From: a virus
Lineage: Duplodnaviria > Caudoviricetes
DNA: 63,423 nucleotides
Virus record (IMG/VR): IMGVR_UViG_3300032665_000026
Span: 1-63,423 of that record
Strand: one strand, 5' to 3'
A program made the translations under genes and the position numbers. Shown in pieces: positions 14,199-62,878 of the stretch (within the stretch, counting starts at the first letter, position 1; each line of letters begins with the position of its first letter). The notes under the pieces are model-generated. The model had not been told where the DNA came from. It was given only the letters and a program-made list of their open reading frames with translations, and did not search any database.

Positions 14199-14263
14199 CT
14201 CCGAACGAAGCAAATACCGTAGATGCAGCAAGCTCCTGGGAATGAGATTAAACTTCCCAACAA

Positions 14264-14338
14264 CGGGTAGTAGCGCAGCTTGGTCAGCGCATCTGGTTTG
14301 GGTCCAGAGGGTCGGGGGTTCGAATCCCTCCTACCCGA
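14264..14338 (+). tRNA. tRNA-Pro(UGG)
   Basis: CGGGTAG/CTACCCG, TCTGG-TTTGGGT-CCAGA. Confidence 0.95.
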
Positions 14339-28889: not shown

Positions 28890-29793
28890 CGGGAAATTTT
28901 ATATAGGGCAAGATACACACGATGATCCAAACTATTATGGGTCAGGGGTTGCCATCGTGAATGCTATAAAATTTTATGGAAAACTTAATTTTTTTAAAGA
29001 AGTACTCCAAGTTTGTAATACTATAGATGAACTCAATCAAGCAGAGATAGAATGGATTAGCAAACTAGATGCTAACAACAGGAAAATAGCTTACAATATA
29101 CAACCAGGTGGTAACCAAAAAGATTCGTATACAAATAACCCTAATAGAGAAGAGATTCTTAGAAAGTTAATAGAATCTAATGCAAGAGTTAATAATGATC
29201 CCGTGCTATCTAAAGCCAAACAAGATAAAACCACCGAAACAAAGATGAAGAATGGTACTCATCCTTCTTTGCCTGGAATGAAAAAAAAGTATAGTGAAGC
29301 TAATAAGGGTAGAGTATTTACAGAAGATACTTGTAAGAAAATTAGTGAAGCTAATAAAGGCAAAGCAAAGACTGAAGAACATAAAAAAAAGTTATCTTTA
29401 GCTAAAAAGGGGAAGCCTTCATCCAACAAAGGTAAGAAAATGAGTAAAGAAGGCATAGATAATATCAAATCGTCATGGACTGACAATCGTAGAGTTAAAC
29501 ATTCACAAATATTTTCTGGTAGGATTGTTTCGGAAGAAACTAAGAAAAAAATATCTGAATCTAAAATTGGGAAACCTGGCACACCGCATACGGAGGATTC
29601 TAAGAAGAAAATCTCTGAAGCCAATAAAGGGAAAATATTCTCAGAAGAATCACGAAAGAAAATGTCAGAAAGCAGTAGGGGACAAACTGCATGGAATAAA
29701 GGTATCCCATGCACAGAAGAAACAAAAGAAAAGATTCGTCAAAGTATTTTGAGTAAGAGAGAGAAAAATGAAGCTAAAATCAAAGACGATTGA
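28858..29793 (+). mobile_element. Free-standing GIY-YIG homing endonuclease with NUMOD3 repeats inside the fractured dnaE
   Basis: VYKTTNKINGKFYIG, YYGSG, ELNQAEIEWI, AYNI; repeats of (H/F)TEE(T/S)KKKISEANKG. Confidence 0.92.
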
Positions 29794-49371: not shown

Positions 49372-51366
49372 TTGCCAAAGATAACTAAGAATTCTAATGC
49401 CAATATCTTACGTGGTCAAAATGACTTCTTTGAGATAGCGAAGAAAAGCCTCAAAGAGAACCCAGAGCTACCAGACATTGTTACGTTCGCTGAGCACCCC
49501 GAATTCTTAGGCCGTAAGCTATACCCTCGTCAAAAGACTTTACTCCGACTTATGTGCCTGGAAACAGAACACATGACAGACTATGACTATGAAGTCATTG
49601 ATGAATGGACAAAGAATTTTGATCGCAATGGAGTGGCAATTGGTGTCTCCCCTGATGTTCTTGAGCGCGTAGATTACCTTAAAGCAAATGGCTATAAACA
49701 TTTCCGTGAAGTAGTCAATATCACTGGTCGTCGTGGTGGTAAAGGCCACATTGGTGGTATCATGGGTGCGTATCTTAATTGGCAGCTAATTATGCTAGAT
49801 GATCCCCAATGGTATTACGGCATCGATAAATCTAAAGATATTTATACGTTGTGCGTAGCTACCAACATTGAACAGGCTAAGCGCTACCAATTTGCTGACC
49901 TTTCTAACACGATCATTGATGCTCCTTGCTTCCAGCCATATATCGCTGACTCTAAAGAGCATTTCCTTGCGTTGCGTACTCCTGCAGACATTAGACGTAT
50001 TGCAGCATTCGAAGCTAGAGGTCTACGACCAAGTCGTTTGATCGCTAGTGTTCGGAATATGGCTGTTACGAGTAACTCTAAAGCCAGTCGTGGTGCTACG
50101 GTATACTCAGTTCTGTTCGACGAGTTCGCACACATGATCGAAGGTACAGGTGGCGCCAGAACGTCTGAAGAAGTCTATAACGCTATTACTCCCGCATTGG
50201 ACCAATTCAACAAAGATGGTTTTATCTATATACCGTCGTCACCATTCACAAAAGTTGGTAAAGCGTATAACTTGTACGAGTCTGCCCTAGAGCGTAACGT
50301 AGAAGAGAACACTCCCGCTTATCCCAACATGATGATGGCTCAGCTCCCTTCATGGGGCCCCTATGAAGACTGGGCAGACCCACGAGCAACAGGTGGGTTT
50401 AATTTCCGTGGTGCTCCTCAAGAATATGATGAAAGCATGAAACTCCTTGAAAAACGTGAGCCTGATGCTTTTAAGGTAGAGCGGATGAGCCAGTGGGCTG
50501 AAGTTACCAACGCTTACCTTAACCCTAAGATGGTTGAGCGTATGTTCGAACCATTCATTGACTCTAAGGGTGAGACTCGTATCCTCGAGCCAGTTTTCGA
50601 AGGTAAGTTTAGCGTAATTTATCAGGGGCACTGCGACCCATCGAAGAGTGGTGCTAACACTGCTGCGATGATTGGTCACGTTGAAAAGATGTATGACGAA
50701 GAAGATGGCGAAGAATGGTACCACGTTATCATTGACTGGATTAAGGTATGGGATCCTGAAGACTATGAAGACCATCAGATCGACTATGAGCAGGTAGAAG
50801 AAGAGCTTGTAGACATACTATGCTCGTTCCGTACTACTAAAGTATTCTCATTCGACCAATATGGTGCTTTCGTTACGCTTCCTAGACTAAAGAAGCGTCT
50901 ATCGCAGCTTAACCCACCACATAAGGTTAAGATACGTGAAGAAAAGTTCTCCAAGGAAAGCAACATGAAGCGTGCAGAACGTTTCAAATCTGCTATTGGT
51001 ATGAACTGGATCCACTCATACCGAGATGACTTTGGTCCTGATGGCACTAGCTTATTAGAACAAGAACTTAAATTCCTTCAAGAGATTAATGGTAGGGTAC
51101 GTAAGCAGGACTTTGGTCCTATTCGCACAGAAGACCTCTCGGACTGCATCATGGTTATTGTTGATGGTTTGCTCGAAGACAACTTCGTTAAGCTAGAGAT
51201 GCGTGATCGTCTTAGCAACACCAATCTATACCCTGGTTCTCAAGGTGGCTATCACACACGTAATTCTAGTGATATGCAACCTGTCTCTGCCAGAGATAGG
51301 CTAAGAGTATTCGGTGCTCAGCGAGCAAACCGTGACTACGGTGGTATGTCAAGAGGCCGACGATGA
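49372..51366 (+). CDS. terL: Terminase large subunit
   Basis: LYPRQ, GRRGGKG (Walker A), VLFDEFAH (Walker B), HCDPS, FDQY, EDLSD nuclease residues. Confidence 0.88.
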   Translation: MPKITKNSNANILRGQNDFFEIAKKSLKENPELPDIVTFAEHPEFLGRKLYPRQKTLLRLMCLETEHMTDYDYEVIDEWTKNFDRNGVAIGVSPDVLERVDYLKANGYKHFREVVNITGRRGGKGHIGGIMGAYLNWQLIMLDDPQWYYGIDKSKDIYTLCVATNIEQAKRYQFADLSNTIIDAPCFQPYIADSKEHFLALRTPADIRRIAAFEARGLRPSRLIASVRNMAVTSNSKASRGATVYSVLFDEFAHMIEGTGGARTSEEVYNAITPALDQFNKDGFIYIPSSPFTKVGKAYNLYESALERNVEENTPAYPNMMMAQLPSWGPYEDWADPRATGGFNFRGAPQEYDESMKLLEKREPDAFKVERMSQWAEVTNAYLNPKMVERMFEPFIDSKGETRILEPVFEGKFSVIYQGHCDPSKSGANTAAMIGHVEKMYDEEDGEEWYHVIIDWIKVWDPEDYEDHQIDYEQVEEELVDILCSFRTTKVFSFDQYGAFVTLPRLKKRLSQLNPPHKVKIREEKFSKESNMKRAERFKSAIGMNWIHSYRDDFGPDGTSLLEQELKFLQEINGRVRKQDFGPIRTEDLSDCIMVIVDGLLEDNFVKLEMRDRLSNTNLYPGSQGGYHTRNSSDMQPVSARDRLRVFGAQRANRDYGGMSRGRR

Positions 51367-51389
51367 AAAAGTTTAGAGATATATTCTGA

Positions 51390-51416
51390 GGGTAGTTTTT
51401 GCACATACCCAGGTGC
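51390..51416 (-). ncRNA. H-type pseudoknot motif, copy 1
   Basis: GCAC-CTGGGTAT-GTGC-AAAAAC-TACCC. Confidence 0.75.
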
Positions 51417-51429
51417 GCCTTCACACGGA

Positions 51430-51624
51430 TTAATCTAATAGTGCATGAACATTGATGCACCAGTACTTATCACCAGCAAGAGCTTCCCACATGGCTAAGT
51501 TCTCGTGTTTCTTCCATTCAGCTCCAGGCACAGCAGCTTGGGCTTTATTTAAACTAGTATATAGTCCAGATATTTCCATGCTATTGTAGCTGGTATCATA
51601 GAGTAATGCATAAACTATTTTCAT
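51430..51624 (-). CDS. Hypothetical protein
   Basis: Last gene of the leftward unit. Confidence 0.55.
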   Translation of the reverse strand: MKIVYALLYDTSYNSMEISGLYTSLNKAQAAVPGAEWKKHENLAMWEALAGDKYWCINVHALLD

Positions 51625-51632
51625 GTTTATAT

Positions 51633-52328
51633 CTATCCTTCTATGACAGTCTGATTTAAGTTGGCGTTCTTGCCACTTAGTATACCAGCATCGTACCCGT
51701 TAATAGAAGTTAACTTATCTGATTGTCTGGATTTCTTTTTACCAACACTTTGAAAATAATCTTCGATAGCATGCTGCTTATCTCGGACTACTAGCTCCAC
51801 TGATGTACCAATAATTTCATTATCCTTAATGACTTTGGCCTTAGATTCTTTGATACGTTCACTAATAGTAACAGCATACCCTGCAAAGAAACTCTTTGTC
51901 CAAGCTTTAACTGGCAAAGTATCATTATAAATAGCCTTAGCTTTTTCTAACTTAATTTTCATCTCGCTAACCATATGGGGACAAAGGATCTCGTAAAGAG
52001 TTAAGCAAAAATCAATATCGCTTTGATAACCATAGATCATGCAGTAACCATCTCCTCGCAATACCTTGCAAAAGTTATGTTTAGCAATGGAATTAAGTAG
52101 CACACTCTTATCAATAAGATATGGTTTATTTACTTCAATCCTTGATGAAGTAATGCCACCAGAACCCACATGGTTATTAAGCTGAGCTTCCTCAATCTGG
52201 TATTGCGTAATGAGCTCCTGAGCAAGTGATTGAGCTGCTGCTACTTCTCCAGGGTGATTACTACTCTCCGCTAAGCGTAAGATTTTTTGTACCCTAGAAA
52301 TAATATCAGTAAGTTTGCTTACCATCAT
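51633..52328 (-). CDS. DUF2786-domain protein
   Basis: RVQKILRLAESSNHPGEVAAAQSLAQELITQY; SFFAGYA; GYDAG. Confidence 0.8.
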   Translation of the reverse strand: MMVSKLTDIISRVQKILRLAESSNHPGEVAAAQSLAQELITQYQIEEAQLNNHVGSGGITSSRIEVNKPYLIDKSVLLNSIAKHNFCKVLRGDGYCMIYGYQSDIDFCLTLYEILCPHMVSEMKIKLEKAKAIYNDTLPVKAWTKSFFAGYAVTISERIKESKAKVIKDNEIIGTSVELVVRDKQHAIEDYFQSVGKKKSRQSDKLTSINGYDAGILSGKNANLNQTVIEG

Positions 52329-52344
52329 TGTTCCTTCCTTGTTA

Positions 52345-52407
52345 TAGTCTAGCCATCATCGGCGGAGAGACGACTAATCCTCTCCGTACACCTCCCGGTG
52401 TTTCGGC
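52345..52407 (-). ncRNA. Type II hammerhead ribozyme, variant core
   Basis: GCC GAAA CACC-GGGA-GGTG TA CGGAGAG-loop-CTCTCCG CCGATGA T GGC; loop TAGTC pairs with 3' GACTA. Confidence 0.75.
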
Positions 52408-52411
52408 AATT

Positions 52412-52657
52412 CTAACTTAACAGCTTATTAATGCTTTTGATGTGGATATTCATGTTACTTATCTGCTCTTCCATAGCTTTCAAAGCACATTCGTACAGAG
52501 CTAAAGCTGCCTCATAGACTGATATGTTAAGGCTTCCCTTGTGATTGTTATAGATCTCAAAACCCTCTAACAATTCAGTGAAGCATTTACTTACTTCGTC
52601 TAATTGATTGACCATAGACTGTACTTGCGAAATTTTGTCTTCGCCAATTACTTGCAT
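52412..52657 (-). CDS. Hypothetical protein
   Basis: In-strand ORF. Confidence 0.55.
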   Translation of the reverse strand: MQVIGEDKISQVQSMVNQLDEVSKCFTELLEGFEIYNNHKGSLNISVYEAALALYECALKAMEEQISNMNIHIKSINKLLS

Positions 52658-52675
52658 TATATGCCTTACTCTTAT

Positions 52676-52969
52676 TTAATATTCTCCATCGTACTCGTAT
52701 GAGTCGATGTATTCATATGAAGCGTCAAATGTTACTTCTTCCTCCTTTCCTGTTTTAGGGCAGATATAATAGAATGTACCTTCTCCATCACCCCAGCTAC
52801 CGCTAGTTACCCAACCACCGCTATATATACTCCCACTGCGATTGTGTGAGTAACAAGTCATAGTGATGCCTTCGATACCAGTATGTGGTTCACCACAAGG
52901 GCATTCTACATCTCTAGTAGCTTCCTCTTCAATCGGTTCTGGTTCATCATCTGGTTCGTAATATCCCAT
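52676..52969 (-). CDS. Hypothetical acidic protein
   Basis: AAGGAG SD. Confidence 0.6.
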   Translation of the reverse strand: MGYYEPDDEPEPIEEEATRDVECPCGEPHTGIEGITMTCYSHNRSGSIYSGGWVTSGSWGDGEGTFYYICPKTGKEEEVTFDASYEYIDSYEYDGEY

Positions 52970-53021
52970 TGTTTCTCCTTTATTTTTATTGTTATATGTG
53001 AAATGCGAGGAGTTAGCTTCC

Positions 53022-53144
53022 TTATAGGAAGTCTACTAGATCTCCATCAAAGCCGTAGCTTTCAAGCTCACGATACATAGAAACAGGGCTAATTTTCCCA
53101 TTGTACATGTCGCTTACTAGTTCTTCTACCTGTTCATCATCCAT
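53022..53144 (-). CDS. 40-aa hypothetical protein (below track cutoff)
   Basis: AAGGA SD; MDDEQVEELVSDMYNGKISPVSMYRELESYGFDGDLVDFL. Confidence 0.55.
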   Translation of the reverse strand: MDDEQVEELVSDMYNGKISPVSMYRELESYGFDGDLVDFL

Positions 53145-53158
53145 GATGTATCCTTTAT

Positions 53159-53220
53159 TTAACCTATCTCATCAGTCCATAGGCGGTCAACCCTATGAAT
53201 ACGCCTCCCGGCGTTTCGAT
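53159..53220 (-). ncRNA. Type II hammerhead ribozyme, canonical core
   Basis: ATC GAAA CGCC-GGGA-GGCG TA TTCATAGG-GTTGACCG-CCTATGGA CTGATGA GAT; loop TTGACC pairs with 3' GGTTAA. Confidence 0.9.
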
Positions 53221-54871
53221 TCATTAATTAATACTCAGCACAGCCACAGTCATAGCCATTGGCAAAATTGCTGCAGCAGTAACTTACTTGCACTACTTGT
53301 CCAGAGGCATTGCGCATATAACCATCTGGTAATGTATCATCATATACATCTGAATCAAATTGGATTGTGTAAGTCATAGCTTACATCTCCTTAACTATTA
53401 GTTCAATTACTCTGTCGAGAGTATCCGATTGACCGCACTTATAGGGATCATCTCCCAACTCAAACGGATAAAACTTCATGATCTTTTCGATCAGCTCATT
53501 TTTATTCATGACACTTCTTTCCAGTTGTTGTTGTTTAATTGATCTAATGTGTCTTGGAACTCGTACAATATATCCCTCTCAGTCTCACCAGTTTCTGTGA
53601 AAGGATCAGCAAATACCCACTCGTTTAAGTTAGGTACAAAAACGTTCTTACCTTTATCAAAACGGGCAAGAGTTGTTTCCCAATCTATGTACCAACCTTT
53701 ACTCTCAGACCACGTTACCACGTAATGATATTCCATTATACTTATTCTCCTACTTCTGTATCTGTCAAGAAACCGTAGACACGTTTAAGATTATGGATAG
53801 CACGTTCTACGCTGCCATCTTTCTCTGAATCATTGATAGCCCATTTAGTTAGGCTAATTGCTGCCTCTAGTGTCTCTGGATCCATTACTCTTCCTCCTTG
53901 TTTCCGGTTACTGTGTAACCTTTCTCTACTACGAACCAATCGTCGTTCCAACCGTCAATCCAGTCGGGGCTTGATTCATCTGGCTCAGGGTGGTTGACGT
54001 ACAACCAACCCCACCCTTCCTCAAAACTATCAAACTCAATACCATCAAACAGGATGTTGTTCATCCAGTCGCGGATAAGGTACTTACTCATTGTTTCCTC
54101 CTAAGTATGTGTGCAACATGAACTACAGTCACCACAGTCACCACAACGACCATCACGACTAGCTAATTCATATTCTCTACCACAGGTGTCACACTCACCC
54201 ATCTCACTACATATGGGGCATAAACCATTGCAATGCTGACAATAGTTTTCATATACAGTAGGTCCATGATCACATGGTTCACATATCATAACTTACTCCT
54301 TACTTGATTGGGAACTCATTGAGGAATGTTTCAAAGACTGATGCCCGAGCTTTGTCCAGCTCATTGTTTAACTCATCGAGATCATCTTGATCTAAATCAG
54401 TGAAATCAATCTCTTCAAACCATTCTTCTAGGTTATCTTTAGTTACTTCATCCATTATACTCCCCAGCATTCATCACATGTACCATCATCACATTCGTCA
54501 CATGGGTGCTTTAATGGAGTATCTAACTCCATACCGCATGTTAAACAAATAGGATATTTCTTACTCACTATGCTTCCTCTCCTGTGTTTACGATAGCCCA
54601 ATCATCCCAATCGATGTTGTCCCACCAGAAGTCAGACTCTAATTGCTTATCTATCAGTTGCTGACCATCCAACCACTGATTTAGTTTCTCGGTTGCTTCT
54701 TCGGGGCTGCTTGCTACAACAGCAACGTCCATAGAAACTTTTGTGTAATACTCTTTCATTGCTTACTCCTCTAACATATTTATTACTTCATTGAGCTGTT
54801 CACATCGATCCAACAATTTAGCAATAACTTTCATTGCTTCTGCTAAGTTAGTTGGAGTCTCGATGCCATAA

Positions 54872-55141
54872 TCAAACAGTAACATCATACTTGCTACCTT
54901 TCTTTGGCATTCCTTTGACTGCCCTACGCTGTAGCTGTGTCATACCACCGAAGATACCAACGACCACGTTGTTATCAATGGCGTACTTTAGGCATTCCTG
55001 TTGCACTATGCAATTGTCACAGTATACCTTAGCTGCATCCATCTTTATTTTTATTTCTCTTGGTAACATTCTACCTTCAAAGAAAAACACATCAGTGTCT
55101 ACACCGATGCAATTGGCATCATCACGCCAGTTCTGATTCAT
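54872..55141 (-). CDS. whiB: Second WhiB-family transcription factor
   Basis: WRDDANC...FF...CDNCIVQQECLKYA...GIFGGMT...RR. Confidence 0.92.
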   Translation of the reverse strand: MNQNWRDDANCIGVDTDVFFFEGRMLPREIKIKMDAAKVYCDNCIVQQECLKYAIDNNVVVGIFGGMTQLQRRAVKGMPKKGSKYDVTV

Positions 55142-55310
55142 TTTATCTCCTCTACCTCATCTACTTCCATTTCATGACCATCGATGAGGAATGCATGGCC
55201 GTTTGCCCACACATCTTCTGCCCATGCTTCAGGAGTATAGCCCTTAGGCATGTCTTCTTCGGTGAATTCATAATAGTATTCAACCGTAGCAATGGCTGTA
55301 TACTTTTTCA

Positions 55311-55700
55311 TCATACCCCCTTAAATAAACTGATGAATTCATCAAACGTCACTGGATCAGTTGCAGTCCACTTGATAGTTTCTTGGTAGTGTTCTATGCT
55401 GATGTCTGAGTAATCAACTTCTTTAATCACAACAGTCCTATCTACATGGTTAACTACAACAATACGCCATACGTCATCATGCTCTGATAGACCAATGCCA
55501 TAGCCAGTTTCACCCATTACTTCACCGAAAATCATCTCTGAGAAGATGATACGGTTGAGATACTCATCATCACCCCAACGACCTTTCCCACGCCCTAGAG
55601 CATTAGCTACAGTCATAGGAAGATAATCAGCACCCCAATGGGTATACAAAAACACTGAACCCTCAGCACTAACCAATTCTACCTGTCCACGGTCTCCCAT
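55311..55700 (-). CDS. Hypothetical phage protein
   Basis: MGDRGQV...FLYTHWG...RWGDDEYLNRII. Confidence 0.65.
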   Translation of the reverse strand: MGDRGQVELVSAEGSVFLYTHWGADYLPMTVANALGRGKGRWGDDEYLNRIIFSEMIFGEVMGETGYGIGLSEHDDVWRIVVVNHVDRTVVIKEVDYSDISIEHYQETIKWTATDPVTFDEFISLFKGV

Positions 55701-55737
55701 GTTATTCTCCTTGCTTGTTTAACCTCATTATGAGGAG

Positions 55738-55788
55738 CACCCTAAGCTAGATTCGAACTAGCATACATCACCACCAATTGGCTAGGGA
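55738..55788 (-). ncRNA. Mini tRNA-like element 1 (acceptor stem plus T arm)
   Basis: TCCCTAG-CCAATTGGTGGTGATGTAT-GCTAG-TTCGAAT-CTAGC-TTAGGGT-G. Confidence 0.7.
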
Positions 55789-55796
55789 TACCTTAA

Positions 55797-56345
55797 CTAC
55801 CAGCTACTTACGTAATAAACGTCGTGACCTTTATTAATTGCTTCTCGTGCTTCCAAGATAAGTTCCAGGTCTTCATTGTAGTAATATGAATCTGAATTCT
55901 CACCAAAGAAAAATCCTGAAGTTGAAGGTAATGTACCAAGGCGTACATGCATTTCTAACTGGTCCAAGTCACCAACATTTAACCTCAACGGTTGGTTGTT
56001 AAAGATTCGAGACTTGTGTAAATTAGCAGCCATCGAAGCATACTGCTCTTGTCGAATGATAGCTTTCATAGCTTCTTCAGATGTTACCATCTCAAGCATC
56101 TCTGGGGTAACTTCTGACTTATCGACTACACCAACCATGTGAGCAACAACTTCAGTAAGAAACCTTTTATCTCCTTCAAAGCCTTGCGCGTTTGCTTTGC
56201 TATTGAATAGATCTTCCATCCATCCTTCAAGGTTGGGGTGCTTACGACGATAAGCTAACTCAAATGTATCAGCATCTTCTGAGTACATAAAGTCAGTGTT
56301 ATCTTCATGACGTTCAACCATGAATACGTACTGGTCTAAACCCAT
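55797..56345 (-). CDS. Hypothetical phage protein
   Basis: MGLDQY...RKHPNLEGWM...GFFFG...VYYVSSW. Confidence 0.7.
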   Translation of the reverse strand: MGLDQYVFMVERHEDNTDFMYSEDADTFELAYRRKHPNLEGWMEDLFNSKANAQGFEGDKRFLTEVVAHMVGVVDKSEVTPEMLEMVTSEEAMKAIIRQEQYASMAANLHKSRIFNNQPLRLNVGDLDQLEMHVRLGTLPSTSGFFFGENSDSYYYNEDLELILEAREAINKGHDVYYVSSW

Positions 56346-56386
56346 AATCTTACTCCTTGTTTAACTTACTATTCCCTACTTGGGAG

Positions 56387-56434
56387 CGTCCTAAGATGGG
56401 ATCGAACCATCATACATCATCACCAGATTAGGAC
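56387..56434 (-). ncRNA. Mini tRNA-like element 2 (acceptor stem plus T arm)
   Basis: GTCCTAA-TCTGGTGATGATGTAT-GATGG-TTCGATC-CCATC-TTAGGAC-G. Confidence 0.75.
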
Positions 56435-56441
56435 CACCTTA

Positions 56442-56849
56442 CTACTCTACATCAGGGAACAACGACCTAAGGTAACTACCATCTAAGATAGAAGACGTTG
56501 CTGCTTTTGCTGCTTCAATGATTTCTGCAGCTTTTTCTAGGCTATCAATCGCTAGAGTGTTGCCTTCATCATCAATGCCACCAGTGATAATGATATCACC
56601 GACAATCATATCAGTCATGCCATACTCGTGAATCCATAGAGCAGTCCCGAATACGTTCATGCGTGGGTTCTCAACGAGCTTTCCTTCGTCATCGATCCAC
56701 AGATCAATACCGAGTGAATCGATACTTACGCATTGGATCAAGCCACCACCAGTGGCTGCTTTCAGTTGCTTGTATGAATTTGCCTCATCAAAGTCAACGA
56801 TTGCAATCTCATTGGTAGCTGCATCAGAAGTGATTGCATACTTTCCCAT
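56442..56849 (-). CDS. DUF3846-like protein
   Basis: GGLIQCV...LWIDDEGKL...N...IVGDIIITG. Confidence 0.75.
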   Translation of the reverse strand: MGKYAITSDAATNEIAIVDFDEANSYKQLKAATGGGLIQCVSIDSLGIDLWIDDEGKLVENPRMNVFGTALWIHEYGMTDMIVGDIIITGGIDDEGNTLAIDSLEKAAEIIEAAKAATSSILDGSYLRSLFPDVE

Positions 56850-56881
56850 TATATTCCCCTTACTTGTTTGGTTTATTTGAG

Positions 56882-56910
56882 TGGGCAGTTTAATGACATA
56901 CCCAGGTCAT
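56882..56910 (-). ncRNA. H-type pseudoknot motif, copy 2
   Basis: ATGAC-CTGGGTAT-GTCAT-TAAAC-TGCCCA. Confidence 0.8.
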
Positions 56911-56920
56911 ACTAACTTAA

Positions 56921-57634
56921 CTACTTAGGGAAAACAATTTCAATTTGCTTACCATTAATAGTAATGAACTGCGGTGCAGCAGGTACATCTGGTTCTACTG
57001 GTGCTACTGATACAGGTTCTAACACTGGATTAATTGCTTCAATAACGTCTCCGATACTATCAAACATCATACTAAAGCCTGGAATATCTGCTTTGTCTCC
57101 ACCGAAATCCCATGCGCTTGTGTCAATGGTGAATGAGGTATCAATCATTGGTTCGGGTTCTACTTCTGCTACAACAGTAGTTGGTGCATCTTCAGTAACA
57201 CTGGAGGTAGTTTCAACCGTTGTAGGAATAGTAGAATATACCATACCTAGATCTGACTTCTCTTTCCAAACACCATCGATTGAGATGCAAGGATTCAAGA
57301 CAATGCCAGTCTTACCAACCTCGTACGATAGACCAAGCATACGGTAGAGAAAGTACTTACGCGCAATATCTCGATTAGTCTCAGTCTGTGCCATTTGTAG
57401 CATCGTAGCGATATTTGCCTTAGCATCTTGGTGAGTTGCATAGAACATACGCCCAATGATAGTACGTGCTCGTCCAGTTTCTTCATCGTTCTTAGAACAA
57501 CGAATATCTACTCGGGAGAAACTTGTTGGTGTCTCCTTAGTAACAGTGAACGCTAGGTCAACTATGTCGCGAGTACGACTAGAATTCCAGCACTTACCAT
57601 CTGGTTTTGGTACCCAGATAAGTTCGTTAGTCAT
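56921..57634 (-). CDS. Hypothetical protein
   Basis: 237 aa in-strand ORF. Confidence 0.6.
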   Translation of the reverse strand: MTNELIWVPKPDGKCWNSSRTRDIVDLAFTVTKETPTSFSRVDIRCSKNDEETGRARTIIGRMFYATHQDAKANIATMLQMAQTETNRDIARKYFLYRMLGLSYEVGKTGIVLNPCISIDGVWKEKSDLGMVYSTIPTTVETTSSVTEDAPTTVVAEVEPEPMIDTSFTIDTSAWDFGGDKADIPGFSMMFDSIGDVIEAINPVLEPVSVAPVEPDVPAAPQFITINGKQIEIVFPK

Positions 57635-57662
57635 CTTACTAGTTCCTTCCTTACTTGTTTAT

Positions 57663-57722
57663 TTGACCTCTTCATTCAGCCGGTGGTGGTCAATCCACCG
57701 AGAGTCCTCCCGGACTTTCTGT
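57663..57722 (-). ncRNA. Type II hammerhead-like ribozyme, divergent core
   Basis: GAAA GTCC-GGGA-GGAC TC TCGGTGG-ATTGACCA-CCACCGG CTGAATGA; TTGACC/GGTCAA pseudoknot; stem II weak. Confidence 0.65.
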
Positions 57723-57732
57723 TCTTATTACT

Positions 57733-57915
57733 TTAATCTTTAACTCTTGGTGTGCAAAGGCCATCCATAATGAGTCCTTCTGCCATGCGACCGTAATGAC
57801 CTTGAAGACTCCAAGCCATTCCAGTGTCAATCAAGTACTGAAACAGTTCAATTGTTTCCTCTCCATTCAAACTGCCCTGTTCGTAGTCAATAATATTAGA
57901 TAGTGTATCGTACAT
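57733..57915 (-). CDS. Small hypothetical phage protein
   Basis: IIDYEQG...LFQYLIDTGMAWSLQGHYGR. Confidence 0.7.
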   Translation of the reverse strand: MYDTLSNIIDYEQGSLNGEETIELFQYLIDTGMAWSLQGHYGRMAEGLIMDGLCTPRVKD

Positions 57916-57939
57916 AATTCTCCTTTTTATTTTATTGTT

Positions 57940-58362
57940 TTACAACGGGTAACCAGAAATACTGCGGATATAACTACTAGGGCCAACAGGCTCTGGTGCT
58001 TTAGCGCTTTCATAACAGCTTAATTGCTCAATGAACCAAGCTTCTGCTTCAACTGATCTTTTACCATACAGCAATCTTGCACTGAATAATAGAGCATCAA
58101 CAAAGTTTTTAGCAAGATAAGAGCTTTGAAACTCTCGTACAAATAATACTTTATTTGCTACTTTCTTACCATCATCCCGCTTACGAACGATAAGCCTTGC
58201 ATTCTTATTAACAATGCCGTATTGAGAACCAGCTTCTAACGTAAAAGATAGATCTACATTATGATTGTATAGCCACCATTTTCTTTCAGGATGTGTTTTG
58301 GCAGTCCAAACAACATCATCATCATTCTTCCTTAGACGCCAATGCAATTCACGACTAATCAT
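57940..58362 (-). CDS. Hypothetical protein
   Basis: In-strand ORF with ATGA overlap. Confidence 0.55.
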   Translation of the reverse strand: MISRELHWRLRKNDDDVVWTAKTHPERKWWLYNHNVDLSFTLEAGSQYGIVNKNARLIVRKRDDGKKVANKVLFVREFQSSYLAKNFVDALLFSARLLYGKRSVEAEAWFIEQLSCYESAKAPEPVGPSSYIRSISGYPL

Positions 58363-58580
58363 GATTCTCCTTGCTTAACAAACTTATTAACAAGTTTGCC
58401 CATGTCTTCTGAGCTTGGAACCTCTTCCGAACTAACATCGAATACAGCTGCCTTTTGACTCTTGGCAAACTCTTCGACCATTAGCTTGAAATAAGCACCG
58501 AATGATTCCATTTGATCAGGATCATCGAACTCAACTTCGATAGTAAGGTTAGGACCTACTTGAGTACCTTTAATCTGCAT
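58359..58580 (-). CDS. Hypothetical protein
   Basis: AAACAAGGAG leader. Confidence 0.6.
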   Translation of the reverse strand: MQIKGTQVGPNLTIEVEFDDPDQMESFGAYFKLMVEEFAKSQKAAVFDVSSEEVPSSEDMGKLVNKFVKQGES

Positions 58581-58608
58581 AGCTATTCTCCTTGTTTAGT
58601 TATTTATG

Positions 58609-58636
58609 TGGGCACTTTATCGTCATACCCAGGACG
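58609..58636 (-). ncRNA. H-type pseudoknot motif, copy 3
   Basis: CGTC-CTGGGTAT-GACG-ATAAAG-TGCCCA. Confidence 0.8.
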
Positions 58637-58747
58637 CCATACACTCGTGTAACACACAGGTAGTAGGCTAACCTACATGAGCTGCTCCTCATGCTGAGTC
58701 TGTGTTGCATCACATCGCGTCGCGGTCCATGCGATACACAAGAAAGG

Positions 58748-58774
58748 GGGCAGTTTTTCTGTCATACCCAGGAC
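58748..58774 (-). ncRNA. H-type pseudoknot motif, copy 4
   Basis: GTC-CTGGGTAT-GAC-AGAAAAAC-TGCCC. Confidence 0.75.
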
Positions 58775-59667
58775 GCAACGATTACTCTACCTTCCAACCG
58801 ATAAGCTGGCTTCTTACGCTCCGCCGCGTGTGTTCTTTCCGGCATCCACTACTTCCGATATGAGCTTCCCCTCATACTGAGTGTGTTATCAAACTAATCG
58901 TGTCTCTGTCCCTGTCATCAACTTCATGAGCTTGTCCTAACAACCATAGCTTAATTACAACAGGGCCTATGTACACAACGAAGCATACATAGGCTTGAGC
59001 TTTATTCCAGACGCTGTGCTCAAAGCGCCCCTAGTTCCTTTGTATCATACCAACTAGGAAGTATTATTGAGCTAACGGATCAAACCGGCTACATTGAGGC
59101 AGTAGCTTCCCTTCTATTAAGTAGGCTTCTGATTACCTCCATACGCTTCCCCGTATGGTGAGGATGGCAGTTGCAGATGCCAGCTGGGACGGTTTATACT
59201 CACCGTGAGTAGCACCCATACCAACCATGACAGCTGGTATGGGTTCATCCGTTAAGAGTGGATGGGTTGGCTAGGTTTAAGGAGAGCCTACGTTCCTGTG
59301 CAAACTTCCCCCTGCACTGAGAGGTTTGTTTGGTAGTACCCGTCTACCAGCTTTCAGTTCTTTAACTGAATAAGCCATGAAAGCAACCGCCTCTCCTACT
59401 CACGGCATAGCCCAGGCCAGGGTTTTAATGACAACCCTCCACATCATGATGCTTTTAACGTGATCCAAACACGTCTATTGAGCTAACCCCACACACACAC
59501 GTTGTTTGTGAAATGCGTGGAGTTAGCTCCTTAGAGCTGATAGCTTCCTCAAGAAACCCAGAGGAGCTATGGAGATGCCACAACAAGAAGGAAAAGCACT
59601 CTCCATAACCCCTCTCAATTGCTTGAGCGAAGTATATGTCGAGCTTATCATCCTTGCCGACGTTATG

Positions 59668-59988
59668 CTATGATCCCAGAAGAACCTTAGCTTTTGCTAG
59701 GGCAGTTTCGAATCCAGCAATACTATCGAGAGCATAGACGCCACTGAGCTTGAGAGCGATCTCAATTTCCTCAACGACATCGACAAGTCCTTTAGCTACC
59801 GTTTGGTAGATGATGACTTTGTTCTCGAGAGCAGCGATCTGTTCTTTGGACAGATCAACCAGTTTGTCGACATTGATGAGAAGATCGACAAGTATCAGGG
59901 AATATTCCCTTAGCTTATCGATGTCCTCAGCAACGTTGATCTTGGATTGAATCTCTTCAACCCGTGCCTGGATACCAGTAGTGTTCAT
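59668..59988 (-). CDS. Hypothetical coiled-coil protein (start 59988)
   Basis: AAGGAG SD before MNTTGIQARVEE. Confidence 0.6.
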   Translation of the reverse strand: MNTTGIQARVEEIQSKINVAEDIDKLREYSLILVDLLINVDKLVDLSKEQIAALENKVIIYQTVAKGLVDVVEEIEIALKLSGVYALDSIAGFETALAKAKVLLGS

Positions 59989-59998
59989 CGCTTTCTCC

Positions 59999-60358
59999 TT
60001 ATGCCCAGTGGTCCTGGTGACCACAATTCTTGTTGGTACCATCGCACTCAGGGTGATGAGCACTGTGCCATTGGAATGGCGCACCCAAAACATTGACAGC
60101 TTCTTTCTGCAAGATGTCATAGAGTTCATTGAGGTGGTCAATCGTTAGCTTAAGCCCAAGAGGGAACATGCGACTAGCATTTTCCAACTCATTGACGCTG
60201 CTATCCTCATTCATCAAGATCTGAGCAATGATTGAGAAAGGTGAAATGATCTCACCCATCTTACCACCCCAGTCCTTGATGCCCTCAAGGAATTCAACGT
60301 GAGCAATACGTGCCTCAGCTGCTTCATCAAGTTTCAAGTCGAGATTGAACTCTTCCAT
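59999..60358 (-). CDS. Hypothetical protein (start 60358)
   Basis: AAACAAGGAG leader before MEEFNLDL. Confidence 0.6.
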   Translation of the reverse strand: MEEFNLDLKLDEAAEARIAHVEFLEGIKDWGGKMGEIISPFSIIAQILMNEDSSVNELENASRMFPLGLKLTIDHLNELYDILQKEAVNVLGAPFQWHSAHHPECDGTNKNCGHQDHWA

Positions 60359-60490
60359 TGTTGCTCCTTGTTTATTTGTTACAGTACCAATCTGGTACAC
60401 TGTGTATCATAAGACACACATGGCACTCAGGTGTAACCATATAGACCACACCTGAGTTGTTGAGTTATAAGTTACTCAATGAACTTGGGG

Positions 60491-61984
60491 CTAAAGCAAA
60501 CCAAGCAAAGCGTCACGGATAGGACCAGCAGGCTTATTGATAAGCTTGCCAGCCTTGAACCCCTTGACTGCTTCTTCAACACTCGGAATCATAATGATCC
60601 GGTGCTTCTTGACCAGTTGAGCACACTGCTTAGTTAATTCATTGTTGCGTCCATCAGTCTTGCTGGTGACGATACCATCACATACCCAGATAAGATCCTC
60701 ACCGGGATGACGTTGATTGATAGCCCACGTAAGAGCAGGACCATCAACACCGTTACCCATCCCACCTACAGATGGGATCTCAGCTACACGCCAACCACGC
60801 CTAGCAAAGATCCAAGCATTGGGCTGATCATCACCACAGTGACTGTACGCCATGATGACAGCAGCTGGTGCTGCCTCAACGATGGACTCGATGTCAGATT
60901 GAGTCAGGCTCATAGAACCTGAGATATCAATCAACACCACGCCACCACGTACCCTCTTCTTGTGAGTGAAGATTCGTCGCTCAGGGTCAGTGTAAAGTCG
61001 GCTGATGTTGCCGATGCTACGACCGAACTGAGCAGGCTTACGCTTGCGCTTCATGTACCCTTCTACCTCAACAGATAGCACGAGAGAATCATCGATGTTA
61101 AGCTTGGCAAACATGCCACGCTCATCGGTGGGGAACTCGTAATCATCAGGTAGCTCATCTTTGAGTGGAGTTCTAAAGGGAGATAACTTACCCTCTTCAC
61201 TCGGCTCAGTGGATTCACCATACTCTGAAGCACGCTTATCCTCTTCCTCGTCACGCTCACGCTGGATAGTTTCAGGAGCTTTCATGCCTGTTGAAGCATA
61301 CTGTGAGATCTCAGCAGCAACACGGATTGTGTTGTTGAAGCCACGAGGGCCAGTAACACCACCACCAAAATCGTATGGGGAAGTGTCACCGAGATCCATG
61401 GGATCACCCAACAGAACCTTATCGAGCCTCTTGCTGAGCTTACGCAACCGCTCAGACCATTCAGGGTTCACAGACCTAACGCCACTCGCGAACGAGTCAA
61501 ACGATTTGGTACCGTGATGCTCCACAGTGAACTTGAGTGCCTCATCCCAGTGCCTAGACGACTTGCCTGTAGCAAGCATCACTCCACGCTTCTTCTCATT
61601 GCCAAGTATCTCGTTAGAATCAACGCCCTTGAGCTCTAAGAATGGCTTGGCGACAGCATTGACTCGGGCTTGTTCTGCAACACGAAGCATAGCATCAGTA
61701 ATACCATGCGACTTGTAAGTAATACCACCCTGCTTGTAAATGTTGTCATCCATTGGAGAGATACGAGCTTCAATTAGCTTGCGCACCTTCAACTGCTGTG
61801 ACTGACTGTCCCCCGTGAGAGGGACAGCCAATACACTCGCAGCGAAGTCTACACCAGCGCCGTACTCACCCACTGTTGTAACAACTTCCCAGTTGTTACC
61901 AGTAGGCGCATCATCACGGTATGAAACGATCGCACCAACTAGTGGCTTGACCCCTTCTTCCTCGATAGCGTAGTCTTCACTCAT
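60491..61984 (-). CDS. VWA-domain protein (CobT/MoxR partner)
   Basis: VLIDISGSMS MIDAS motif, GNGVDGPAL, WVCDG. Confidence 0.85.
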   Translation of the reverse strand: MSEDYAIEEEGVKPLVGAIVSYRDDAPTGNNWEVVTTVGEYGAGVDFAASVLAVPLTGDSQSQQLKVRKLIEARISPMDDNIYKQGGITYKSHGITDAMLRVAEQARVNAVAKPFLELKGVDSNEILGNEKKRGVMLATGKSSRHWDEALKFTVEHHGTKSFDSFASGVRSVNPEWSERLRKLSKRLDKVLLGDPMDLGDTSPYDFGGGVTGPRGFNNTIRVAAEISQYASTGMKAPETIQRERDEEEDKRASEYGESTEPSEEGKLSPFRTPLKDELPDDYEFPTDERGMFAKLNIDDSLVLSVEVEGYMKRKRKPAQFGRSIGNISRLYTDPERRIFTHKKRVRGGVVLIDISGSMSLTQSDIESIVEAAPAAVIMAYSHCGDDQPNAWIFARRGWRVAEIPSVGGMGNGVDGPALTWAINQRHPGEDLIWVCDGIVTSKTDGRNNELTKQCAQLVKKHRIIMIPSVEEAVKGFKAGKLINKPAGPIRDALLGLL

Positions 61985-62808: not shown

Positions 62809-62878
62809 CACTGCAGATGGGAATCGAACCCACAATCTTCTAGCTGAACTAGACGCTCTACCATTGAGCCACTGCAGT
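62809..62878 (-). tRNA. Atypical tRNA with shortened anticodon arm centred on UCA
   Basis: ACTGCAG TG GCTC-AATGGTA-GAGC G TCTAG-TTCAG-CTAGA AGATT GTGGG-TTCGATT-CCCAT CTGCAGT G. Confidence 0.75.

Follow-up and report, generated by a model that had tools for sequence, protein, structure and literature searches.

A conserved H-type pseudoknot RNA of about 27 nt behind phage and bacterial genes and its possible role as a barrier at cistron ends

The phage genome studied here (the window, the whole 63,423-nt stretch of virus record IMGVR_UViG_3300032665_000026) carries a short motif at several separate places, which raises the question of what the motif is and what it does at the ends of genes. 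The first-pass annotation had described four dispersed copies of an H-type pseudoknot with covarying stems. All four were recovered at the positions that it gave, read on the minus strand and thus in the same direction as the leftward genes (Table 1). The stems that it listed are present and close CUGGGUAU, and each copy continues into an A-rich linker, ending in AAAC in all but copy 3, and then U(G/A)CCC; the hexaloop module noted near copies 3 and 4 is also there, twice. Copy 1 sits at the end of the leftward unit facing terL, as had been claimed, 16 nt past the stop of the last leftward ORF and with the terL 3' end opposite (terL stop at 51366); in its tail, U-A replaces U.G. The closing C of copy 2 lies 14 nt past the stop of the ORF upstream, and its fold stops about 33 nt short of the ATG of ORF 56442-56849 (DUF3846). 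For copy 3, about 29 nt separate the fold from the ATG of ORF 58359-58580; copy 4 lies 139 nt upstream of copy 3, within an ORF-poor stretch of about 1.09 kb. A supposed expanded copy near 59404-59418 found no support: its letters are present, but the covariance model gave no match there at E 10 with filters off, and the pairing register differs.

Table 1 Pseudoknot copies and neighboring features in the window
Feature	Position	Strand	Description
Pseudoknot copy 1	51390..51416	-	P1 GCAC/GTGC, loop CUGGGUAU, tail UACCC; 36.4 bits
Pseudoknot copy 2	56882..56910	-	P1 ATGAC/GUCAU; 48.0 bits
Pseudoknot copy 3	58609..58636	-	P1 CGUC/GACG, linker end AAAG; 42.8 bits
Pseudoknot copy 4	58748..58774	-	P1 GUC/GAC; 42.3 bits
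Pseudoknot copy 5 (new)	14233..14258 (model match 14229-14261)	+	loop CUGGGAAU, tail UUCCC; 17.7 bits
tRNA gene directly downstream of copy 5	14264..14338	+	
ORF upstream of copy 1	51430..51624	-	64 aa; last gene of leftward unit
ORF upstream of copy 2	56921..57634	-	237 aa, no family found
Hexaloop module, two copies	58676-58699 and 58859-58882	-	

Chance is excluded as the source of the copies in the window. The motif 8-mer occurs 8 times against 1.66 expected (8 or more in 0 of 100 shuffles), and the 10-mer CCTGGGTATG occurs four times, only on the minus strand, with no occurrence of the reversed control. The loop-plus-tail pattern matched three times against 0.08 expected; copy 1, with its UACCC tail, escapes this pattern. 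The covariance model scored copies 1-4 at 36.4-48.0 bits (E 5e-9 to 2e-12) and matched a fifth, diverged copy at E 0.0014 in the window and E 0.017 in a larger search. In copy 5 the loop (GGGAA) and the tail have changed together, a compensatory replacement of U.G by A-U. It lies between two tRNA genes on their strand, with tRNA-Lys 33 nt before and tRNA-Pro 5 nt after.

Judged from covariation, the repeated motif is a real H-type pseudoknot RNA of about 27 nt. P1 has 4-5 variable pairs and a C-G closing pair, L1 is CU, and P2 pairs GGGUA with U(G/A)CCC. L2 is a single base (U in 96 of 102 distinct copies, A in 6), L3 is an A-rich stretch of 5-6 nt that ends in AAAC in 96 of the 102, and the distance from the closing G to the tail is fixed at 9 nt in 77 of them. 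Both helices covary in an alignment of 91 sequences, with 96.1% of cells paired overall against 82.4% in shuffles. The loop-tail helix P2, which the covariance model used to find variants did not encode, is 100% paired, with two-sided compensatory changes in four of its five pairs. These results bear out the loop-tail pairing and the covarying stems proposed earlier; the loop, described as invariant, is so within the window, whereas elsewhere it varies jointly with the tail. While the helices covary, the nucleotides that are invariant across phyla occupy six loop and junction positions (C8, U9, A14-U27, A23, A24). The P1/P2 stack has 9-10 bp, and a U precedes the first G-C pair of P2. Nested folding reached only -4.7 to -8.3 kcal/mol and was no better than shuffles (z +0.1 to -1.5).

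The same fold of roughly 27 nt was found in many uncultured phages, cultured actinophages, cyanophages, crAss-like phages and a microvirus, the hosts spanning Actinobacteria, Cyanobacteria and Bacteroidota, and also on bacterial contigs of many phyla. Rhodococcus phage Trina, Microbacterium phage Count and Corynebacterium phage phi673 are among the cultured carriers. Phage genomes carry 1-5 dispersed copies. The Rfam scan that had been suggested as a check, covering Rfam 15 with its RAGATH motifs and small ribozymes, matched no family to the motif; in the window and on 20 bacterial loci the models hit tRNAs and gave chance microRNA-like matches elsewhere, none on the motif.

In general, the element goes with the ends of genes, including convergent junctions such as that of copy 1. 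Of 90 copies that could be classified, 83 share their strand with the gene upstream and 7 oppose it; for the gene downstream, 74 copies agree in direction and 20 do not. A co-oriented ORF of at least 60 codons ends near 87 copies, and its stop lies 7-10 nt before the loop-closing C (4-7 nt before P1) in 52 of these and at 2-6 nt in none. The modal spacing is 8-9 nt; copies 1 and 2 of the window are off the mode. Twelve copies have a tRNA 5' end 4-7 nt past the end of the fold. The following start codon has no tight spacing and lies 10-60 nt or more away. The genes upstream of the motif are mutually unrelated (Hsp20, CMD, capsid, DUF932, ArdC and others), and the neighboring genes have no common functional theme, none being tied to queuosine. 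The base after the tail is not conserved, A being the commonest (81 of 138 copies), and a U-run follows within 10 nt of the tail in 19 of 138. The 12 terminator-like sites in 51000-60600 all lie apart from the copies, no such site was found near copy 1, and a canonical terminator is absent at most of the convergent sites examined, while an ordinary terminator follows some copies (L090, L120).

A site acting at the level of DNA, for promotion, recombination or replication, is highly improbable on this evidence. Such a site might be gained or lost between close relatives, as the element is (the copy 1 site is empty in relatives L201 and L212, where the two genes abut), and might stand, as it often does, before genes at a typical 5' UTR distance. 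However, pseudoknot covariation is meaningless in duplex DNA, the strand follows transcription, and the anchor is the stop codon rather than the start codon. The spacings of sigma-54 and sigma-70 promoters, read from the sequence, do not fit, and the organisms that carry the motif have unrelated transcription machineries. The orientation-independence in relatives that the first-pass annotation associated with a DNA site was not seen.

The stop spacing could instead point to the ribosome. With the stop codon in the A site, the knot would abut the mRNA entrance and might modulate termination or block read-through or re-initiation, and recoding pseudoknots have a similar spacer geometry. In bacterial operons, 16 of 17 loci have a conserved micro-ORF in frame with the knot; the stop codon there lies 1-7 nt before the closing C or within the knot (a UGA inside the knot in 10 of the 16), and the knot could stall the ribosome as a regulatory leader. 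However, a slippery site and a conserved extended frame are both lacking; the six bases ahead of the stops show no relation to one another, and spacings of 7, 8, 9 or 10 nt keep no reading frame. A role directed at the ribosome also leaves unexplained the 4-7 nt spacing to tRNAs and the copies that oppose their upstream ORF, and we consider it rather unlikely.

The explanation that best fits the contexts, one that we hold tentatively and at less than even odds, is that the motif is a self-contained, cis-acting barrier at the cistron end that defines and protects RNA 3' ends. The fold, strand, spread and positional rules are observed; from them we infer the barrier and the enzymes that would act on it. 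This agrees in substance with the 3'-end protector or exonuclease block put forward in the first-pass annotation. The knot would be transcribed together with the surrounding genes and fold into a compact H-type pseudoknot, placed as near behind the stop as a terminating ribosome permits, so that translation would never melt it. It would then halt 3'-to-5' exonucleases. The end to be protected would arise either where transcription stops or through cleavage downstream, with RNase P cutting at a neighboring tRNA or an endonuclease cutting within the A/U-rich spacer. The knot would thereby define and stabilize the 3' end of the upstream RNA. Since 3' exonucleases need a longer tail to load, an RNase P cut at a tRNA 4-7 nt away would probably leave a tail too short for them.

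Several findings weigh against such a barrier. At the 7 copies with the upstream ORF on the opposite strand there is no co-oriented upstream gene to protect, and where an ordinary terminator follows, as at the L090 and L120 copies, a protector would be superfluous. The position of the stop in the bacterial micro-ORF operons means that the ribosome must melt the knot. Because the nested fold is no more stable than shuffles, a barrier role would need tertiary contacts, a ligand or a protein. The off-mode distances of copies 1 and 2 (16 and 14 nt) also depart from the proposed placement. Finally, as a heuristic, letters invariant across phyla point to ligand binding or catalysis over plain stability: section 17 of Weinberg et al. 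2017 (PMC5737381) treats a pseudoknot found in several phyla with many conserved nucleotides in this way.

That heuristic applies to the motif and speaks for a ligand-binding aptamer, which might represent a novel, very small class akin to riboswitches. Bound at the P1/P2 junction, a small molecule or ion would steady the knot and so tune RNA stability, termination or ribosome passage. The invariant nucleotides lie exactly at the junction and in the loops of covarying helices, the motif occurs in many phyla, and its topology and size resemble those of the preQ1-I aptamer, an H-type knot with an A-rich L3. On the other hand, riboswitch models including preQ1-I gave no match up to E 10 over the region of copies 3 and 4 (58560-59700), and the preQ1-I model (RF00522) gave none at its gathering score in the whole window. 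The neighbor genes lack a common function, the motif is tied to upstream stops and tRNA 5' ends rather than to downstream ribosome-binding sites, and the 1-5 dispersed copies per phage genome come with no conserved expression platform. The aptamer of preQ1 or SAM-II size suggested earlier thus keeps a small probability, which we put on a par with that of a ribosome-directed role.

Relatives bring a further possibility into view. Behind the orthologue of the ORF upstream of copy 2 they carry either the pseudoknot or, at the corresponding syntenic position, a mini-element that resembles a tRNA and has a covarying T-arm, and in one of them the unit also contains a hammerhead ribozyme, so that the unit appears punctuated by RNA-processing elements. 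The motif might itself be a processing signal: its coaxial P2/P1 stack would pass for the acceptor arm of a tRNA, or for some other RNase substrate, and be cut by RNase P or another nuclease; that the knot cuts itself is a less likely variant. The presence of the knot in tRNA clusters at tRNA-like spacing is consistent with this. Pre-tRNA ends are marked by U(-1), G1-C72 and A73, and the invariant U before the first P2 G-C pair and the frequent A after the tail resemble them. A T-loop and CCA are absent, however, the stack is short for such a substrate (9-10 bp), the base after the tail varies, and no ribozyme family among the Rfam models matches the motif; to our knowledge, no natural self-cleaver is as small as 27 nt. 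We regard a processing signal as unlikely, if slightly less so than an aptamer.

Still more doubtful is the reading that the knot binds a protein, as a site or decoy for an RNA-binding protein of the phage or host, or as a ToxI-like antitoxin. The conserved loop nucleotides and the pair of copies 139 nt apart in a non-coding stretch would suit it. The range of hosts, plus the microvirus, leaves no obvious single phage protein partner, none of the 17 leftward ORFs had a PADLOC match, and no tandem array stands beside a nuclease gene.

A bolder proposal can also be made. The 27-nt knot would be the smallest natural 'sophisticated' RNA, binding a ubiquitous small molecule or catalyzing or directing its own processing, and would serve as universal gene-end punctuation in phages of at least four bacterial phyla and in some bacteria, where it would be wired to the conserved micro-ORF ahead of Rrf2/Hcp stress operons. 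We think this improbable, though marginally less so than the processing signal.

In any case, phages of Actinobacteria, Cyanobacteria and Bacteroidota, a microvirus and bacterial chromosomes share a short RNA that has invariant letters, pairs as a knot, is strictly placed and is absent from Rfam 15. A portable barrier that works without a host factor would account for the way in which phages whose units are long and polycistronic set and guard their RNA ends, and would offer synthetic biology a 27-nt insulator or stabilizer; ligand binding or directed cleavage would make the motif the smallest natural example of its kind. The question is directly testable, since the motif is present in several cultured phage-host pairs.

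Among known systems, the preQ1-I riboswitch aptamer (RF00522), the smallest natural aptamer we know of, is likewise an H-type pseudoknot, about 30 nt long. Its P1 is short, its A-rich L3 lies in the P1 groove, and its conserved nucleotides gather at the helix junction. Its covariance model gave no match to the motif even at E 10, and it differs in its conserved letters and in its multi-nucleotide L2 with a ligand-reading C, where the motif has a single U or A. The motif stands behind genes of any function or before tRNAs, not in the leaders of queuosine or transporter genes.

The luteovirus-type frameshift knots and the MuLV read-through knot are compact recoding pseudoknots of RNA viruses that lie a few nt past the decoded codon. 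They share with the motif a length of about 28 nt, a 2-nt L1 starting with C, an A-rich L3 and probable base triples, and the motif resembles them in placement (52 of 87 stops 7-10 nt before the closing C, none at 2-6). Unlike them, it has neither a slippery sequence nor an extended frame and occurs in DNA phages and bacteria behind ordinary stops of unrelated genes.

The 3'-end module of MALAT1 and MEN-beta places a triple helix ahead of the tRNA-like mascRNA, where RNase P cuts. A compact multi-stranded structure just upstream of a tRNA or tRNA-like element recalls the 4-7 nt spacing from knot to tRNA, and RNase P would make the 3' end that the structure guards, as might be the case with the tRNA-like syntenic element in the relatives. 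The MALAT1 module is eukaryotic and joins an A-rich tract with a U-rich hairpin instead of forming an H-type knot, so the parallel is an analogy of mechanism only, with RNase P cleavage at the motif putative. The engineered evopreQ1 and mpknot elements on prime-editing guide RNAs are small H-type knots at a 3' end that slow 3' exonucleolytic decay; being artificial and used in eukaryotic cells, they are not evidence for the phage motif.

ToxI and other type III antitoxin RNAs are also small, pseudoknotted and phage-associated. ToxI forms tandem direct repeats next to a ToxN-family nuclease gene, and the antitoxin mimic suggested by the first-pass annotation is disfavored, the copies being dispersed (14.2, 51.4, 56.9 and 58.6-58.8 kb) with different stems, and the 17 leftward ORFs matching no defense family in PADLOC. 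Terminator and REP-type 3' stabilizing hairpins and the PeSL cassette borders of T4-type phages are simple hairpins whose loops are not conserved, whereas the motif is a knot with loop letters invariant across phyla and is seldom followed by a U-run. Like the motif, they are short structured elements at gene ends, patchy between relatives, and they stabilize or delimit transcripts.

The motif is an RNA-level, self-contained knot of about 27 nt. Each copy reads, 5' to 3', as a variable stem (P1) closed by a C-G pair, the loop CUGGGUAU, the 3' strand of P1, an A-rich linker (L3) ending in AAAC and the tail U(G/A)CCC, and the GGGUA of the loop is complementary to the tail, which gives an H-type pseudoknot with a second stem (P2). 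In the window, the four dispersed copies described in the first-pass annotation were recovered, as the 10-mer CCTGGGTATG occurs four times, above chance, always between ORFs and always on the minus strand, matching the direction of the leftward genes; the reversed control had zero occurrences. The 8-mer alone had 8 matches in the window against 1.66 expected (0 of 100 shuffles reached 8), and the remainder of the motif is present at only four of these eight sites. An expanded copy suggested at 59404-59418 was rejected by sequence inspection and a covariance-model search.

The pairing of P1 was tested by scanning public collections with only the loop and tail as the pattern. This gave at least 120 matches in at least 119 loci of viral contigs. 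The linker ended in AAAC, an ending not demanded by the pattern, in 75 of the viral-contig matches listed, and 72 of those 75 had at least two Watson-Crick P1 pairs beyond C-G, for which chance is about 1 in 16. When AAAC was included in the pattern, genome contigs yielded 56 matches in 55 loci; such a P1 was present in 45, and the remaining 11 resemble chance matches in G+C-rich coding sequence. Four pair types were seen at each of two P1 positions in an alignment of 109 instances, taken from 111 that passed a filter for at least two P1 pairs and an A-rich linker (two dubious instances, L009 and L130, were left out). Because the same filter demanded that these two positions pair, independent evidence for P1 comes from the count of 72 among 75.

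For P2, we built a covariance model with P1 only, blind to P2, and searched it against the window and all fetched loci. Loop and tail changed together in every diverged match (see table). An alignment of 91 sequences was hand-picked from the five window copies and 86 model matches; 100% of its P2 cells were paired, two-sided changes were found at four of the five pairs, the observed scores were unmatched by any shuffle, and shifted partner columns brought pairing to only 31-51%. About 13 probable chance matches without P1 were left out, as were five length or other variants, all of them P2-compatible (L071:7250, L032:3492, L182, L067:10878 and L076:2195), and two sub-threshold matches were kept (L057:7867, E 0.4; L064:4810, E 0.12). 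The P2 covariation bears out the loop-tail pairing of an H-type pseudoknot, as originally annotated. Nested folding of the motif (-4.7 to -8.3 kcal/mol, z +0.1 to -1.5) was no better than that of shuffles, so the structural argument is made from covariation only.

Coordinates of the features discussed, and loop and tail sequences of knot variants
Feature	Location	Strand	Loop	Tail
Knot copy 1	window 51390-51416	-		
Knot copy 2	window 56882-56910	-		
Knot copy 3	window 58609-58636	-		
Knot copy 4	window 58748-58774	-		
Knot copy 5, between tRNA-Lys and tRNA-Pro genes	window 14233-14258	+	GGGAA	UUCCC
Knot variant			AGGUA	UGCCU
Knot variant			UGGUA	UGCCA
Knot variant			GAGUA or GAGCA	UGCUC
Knot variant			GGACA	UGUCC
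Knot variant			GGCCA	UGGCC
Knot variant			GGGCA	UGCCC
Knot variant			GGGUA	UACCC
Knot variant, loop and tail each one base longer			GGGGCA	UGCCCC
terL	window 49372-51366	+		
ORF upstream of copy 2	window 56921-57634	-		
ORF downstream of copy 2 (DUF3846)	window 56442-56849	-		
497-aa gene	window 60491-61984	-		
Three hairpins after the 497-aa gene	window 60401-60490			
tRNA-like mini-element	L208 12538-12624	-		
tRNA-like mini-element	L204-206 ~12591-12677	-		
Type II hammerhead ribozyme	L204 13269-13330	-		
Two-ORF DNA polymerase (whole span 27486-32065)	window 27486-28889 and 29768-32065	+		
311-aa ORF	window 28858-29793			
Single tRNA gene	window 62809-62878	-		
Main tRNA cluster	window 14.1-15.5 kb			
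Hairpin-rich segment	window 58581-59667	-		
Long hairpin	window 59548-59627			
Hexaloop module	window 58676-58699 and 58859-58882	-		

Several positions hardly vary. The C and U of L1, the junction-side A-U pair of P2 and two A's of L3 are invariant, and the single base of L2 (U in 96 and A in 6 of 102 copies), the final C of L3 and the closing C-G pair are nearly so; the closing G lies 9 nt from the tail in 77 of 102 distinct copies. By a rule of thumb in PMC5737381, junction nucleotides of this kind that are invariant across phyla point to ligand binding or catalysis, and they favor reading the knot as a ligand-binding aptamer, which we consider improbable. The earlier suggestion of an aptamer of preQ1-like size found no counterpart among catalogued families: Rfam 15 had no family for the motif at the gathering score over the whole window or in 20 bacterial loci, nor in the segment around copies 3 and 4 with the cutoff relaxed to E 10, which ruled out membership in preQ1-I or any other catalogued family. 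Literature searches with the motif strings returned, among the matches listed, only primer noise and none with the RNA-letter form of the motif. Keyword searches of main article texts turned up no account of a knot like this in phages, which may be listed elsewhere under another name.

The window record is linear, with a CheckV completeness of 43%, and belongs to a myovirus-like phage encoding a baseplate, a split DNA polymerase, UvsX and tRNAs, the terminase of which is closest (~43% identity) to those of large actinophages such as Rhodococcus phages Finch and E3. The two DNA polymerase ORFs, both phrog_405, are separated by a 311-aa ORF, which could be a homing endonuclease or an intron-like insertion. 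Genes run rightward as far as terL and leftward from ~63.4 kb down to 51.4 kb. The leftward unit holds a single tRNA gene, far from the main tRNA cluster, and about 1.09 kb between genes of 157 and 73 aa that is rich in hairpins and without a convincing ORF. This segment may be the source of one or more non-coding RNAs; its long hairpin attracts chance microRNA-like Rfam matches. A second repeated module, composed of ACTCAG followed by a G-rich hexaloop on a stem of 6 bp (YATGAG/CTCATR), has exactly two copies in the window against 0 expected by chance, one each upstream of knot copies 3 and 4. An array of ToxI type, which bears on the antitoxin reading of the first-pass annotation, was ruled out by a PADLOC defence-family search of 17 leftward ORFs, which gave no match.

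As relatives we compared 17 loci in which terL is 73-90% identical, and none of them has the knot at the terL junction. In two (L201 and L212) the convergent genes abut there, indicating that copy 1 occupies an extra segment of ~55 nt. The content of the copy 2 site, after the orthologue of its upstream ORF or before that of the DUF3846 ORF, differs among relatives: the window, L212 and L197/198 have the knot, and L207/L213, L208 and L204-206 have a different, tRNA-like mini-element, also carried by L211. In the mini-element an acceptor-like stem (CCCCA/UGGGG) encloses an arm with a covarying stem and a canonical T-loop (TTCGATT or TTCAATT); it is without an anticodon arm and has no Rfam match. 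A type II hammerhead ribozyme (37.3 bits against a gathering score of 37) directly follows the orthologue of the window 497-aa gene in L204, where the window has three hairpins, and in the same relative a tRNA begins 1 nt after another knot. Knot and mini-element alternating at one site, with a hammerhead nearby, suggest that the leftward unit is punctuated by interchangeable RNA-processing or RNA-structure elements.

The knot is widespread. Rhodococcus phage Trina, Microbacterium phage Count, Corynebacterium phages phi673 and phi674 and Cylindrospermopsis virus CrV-01T carry it, as do crAss-like phage cr7_1, with a U-run directly after, and a Microviridae genome, in which TTTTTT follows. Copies in named phages sit between annotated genes on the gene strand, and whole-record searches gave 1-5 copies per phage genome. 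The copy in Staphylococcus phage StB12 is doubtful, one of its P2 pairs being mismatched, and BLAST rows only link the motif to Gordonia phage OneUp, crAss-like phage cr124_1, Cellulosimicrobium phage DS1 and Synechococcus phages S-B05, RB11-B and S-SCSM1. PLSDB plasmids searched at BLAST sensitivity had no knot, the one match being a chance match within a coding gene. Bacterial contigs with the knot are assigned to Saccharibacteria, Omnitrophota, Planctomycetota, Cyanobacteria, Deltaproteobacteria, Bacillota, Chloroflexi and others; many of these contigs are from short metagenome bins and could be of phage origin. Contig L152 is clearly chromosomal, by its Rnf, Rrf2, ferredoxin, hybrid-cluster protein and peroxiredoxin genes. 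Four Saccharibacteria contigs (L127, L149, L154 and L157) have the knot behind a DUF7249 gene at the usual 8-12 nt, and L140 has three knots inside 2.1 kb.

Placement was analyzed in 138 non-redundant copies, collected with a pattern that tolerated the variants seen and demanded P2 pairing and two or more P1 pairs; a few chance matches remain. The upstream gene was on the same strand in 83 of 90 classifiable cases and opposite in 7 (downstream, 74 same and 20 opposite), indicating that the element goes with the end of the preceding gene, convergent junctions such as that of copy 1 included. The orientation-independence in relatives by which a DNA site had been expected to reveal itself was thus not seen. 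A promoter or duplex-DNA site was ruled out: the GG/GC spacing does not fit a sigma-54 promoter, TATGAC as '-10' would lie 12-13 nt from the putative start, and an N4-type hairpin promoter, which needs a 3-nt loop, was rejected on loop size. A frameshift or read-through signal was also rejected, with no conserved frame and no slippery site.

A co-oriented ORF of at least 60 codons ends near 87 of the 138 copies. Its stop ends 7-10 nt before the closing C in 52 of the 87 (6, 19, 18 and 9 cases at 7, 8, 9 and 10 nt), in none at 2-6 nt, and in three at 1 nt or less; the stop lies most often 6 nt, and never less than 3-4 nt, from the first P1 pair. In the window the distance from stop to closing C is 14 nt for copy 2 and 16 nt for copy 1, and copies 3 and 4 have no such ORF ending nearby. 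Genes upstream of knots are functionally unrelated. Spacing to the next start codon is spread across 10-60 nt and beyond, an A comes directly after the tail in 81 of 138 copies, and a U-run follows the tail in 19 of 138. Twelve knots end 4-7 nt ahead of the 5' end of a tRNA that is co-oriented with them (Asn, Gly, Lys, Pro, Ile or Met), and spacing from a preceding tRNA is loose (33-57 nt). That the knot serves as an RNase signal is improbable in our view.

In 17 bacterial loci (L124, L126, L133, L141-143, L151, L152, L160, L161, L163, L164, L166, L169, L172, L175 and L178) the order begins with a promoter and its palindromic operator; then come a strong Shine-Dalgarno sequence, a conserved micro-ORF, the knot and further genes. 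The micro-ORF has 18-27 codons with the core AHC-x-(D/E)-G-(C/H), ends in or just before the knot, and is coding, as judged from third-codon variation; its peptide matched no Pfam or NCBIfam family. In 7 or more of these 17 loci the gene behind the knot encodes an Rrf2-family regulator, recognized by its conserved MKLITR start (confirmed by Pfam in L151 and L172), and other downstream genes are GRDB-like (L163) or encode an aspartyl protease (L164); L152 has ferredoxin and hybrid-cluster-protein (hcp) operon genes further downstream. The knot is in frame with the micro-ORF in 16 of 17 loci, where the last codons would read S-W-V and then UGA, a triplet made up of L2, the closing G and, from the P1 3' strand, its first base. 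No interruption is seen in ten of the 16; in the other six a TAG lies in frame one to three codons before. A ribosome translating the micro-ORF has to melt the knot, in contrast to the situation at the phage copies. That the knot is a ribosome-directed element is improbable in our view.

Judged from sequence, the best reading of the knot, though a tentative one, is a barrier at the end of a cistron. A terminating ribosome covers a stretch of mRNA ahead of the A site equal to the minimum stop-to-knot distance, so the knot could remain folded during termination, and the short, tight spacer would leave little RNA unprotected. Engineered small knots protect RNA 3' ends. Against a barrier stand the low stability predicted by nested folding, the junction nucleotides invariant across phyla, copies without a co-oriented upstream gene, others with an ordinary terminator after them, and the micro-ORF operons, which do not fit. 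In favor of a barrier, at knots followed by a tRNA a cut by RNase P 4-7 nt downstream would leave too short a tail for 3' exonucleases, which need a longer one to load. This arrangement of knot then tRNA resembles that of MALAT1, in which a triple helix is followed by mascRNA.
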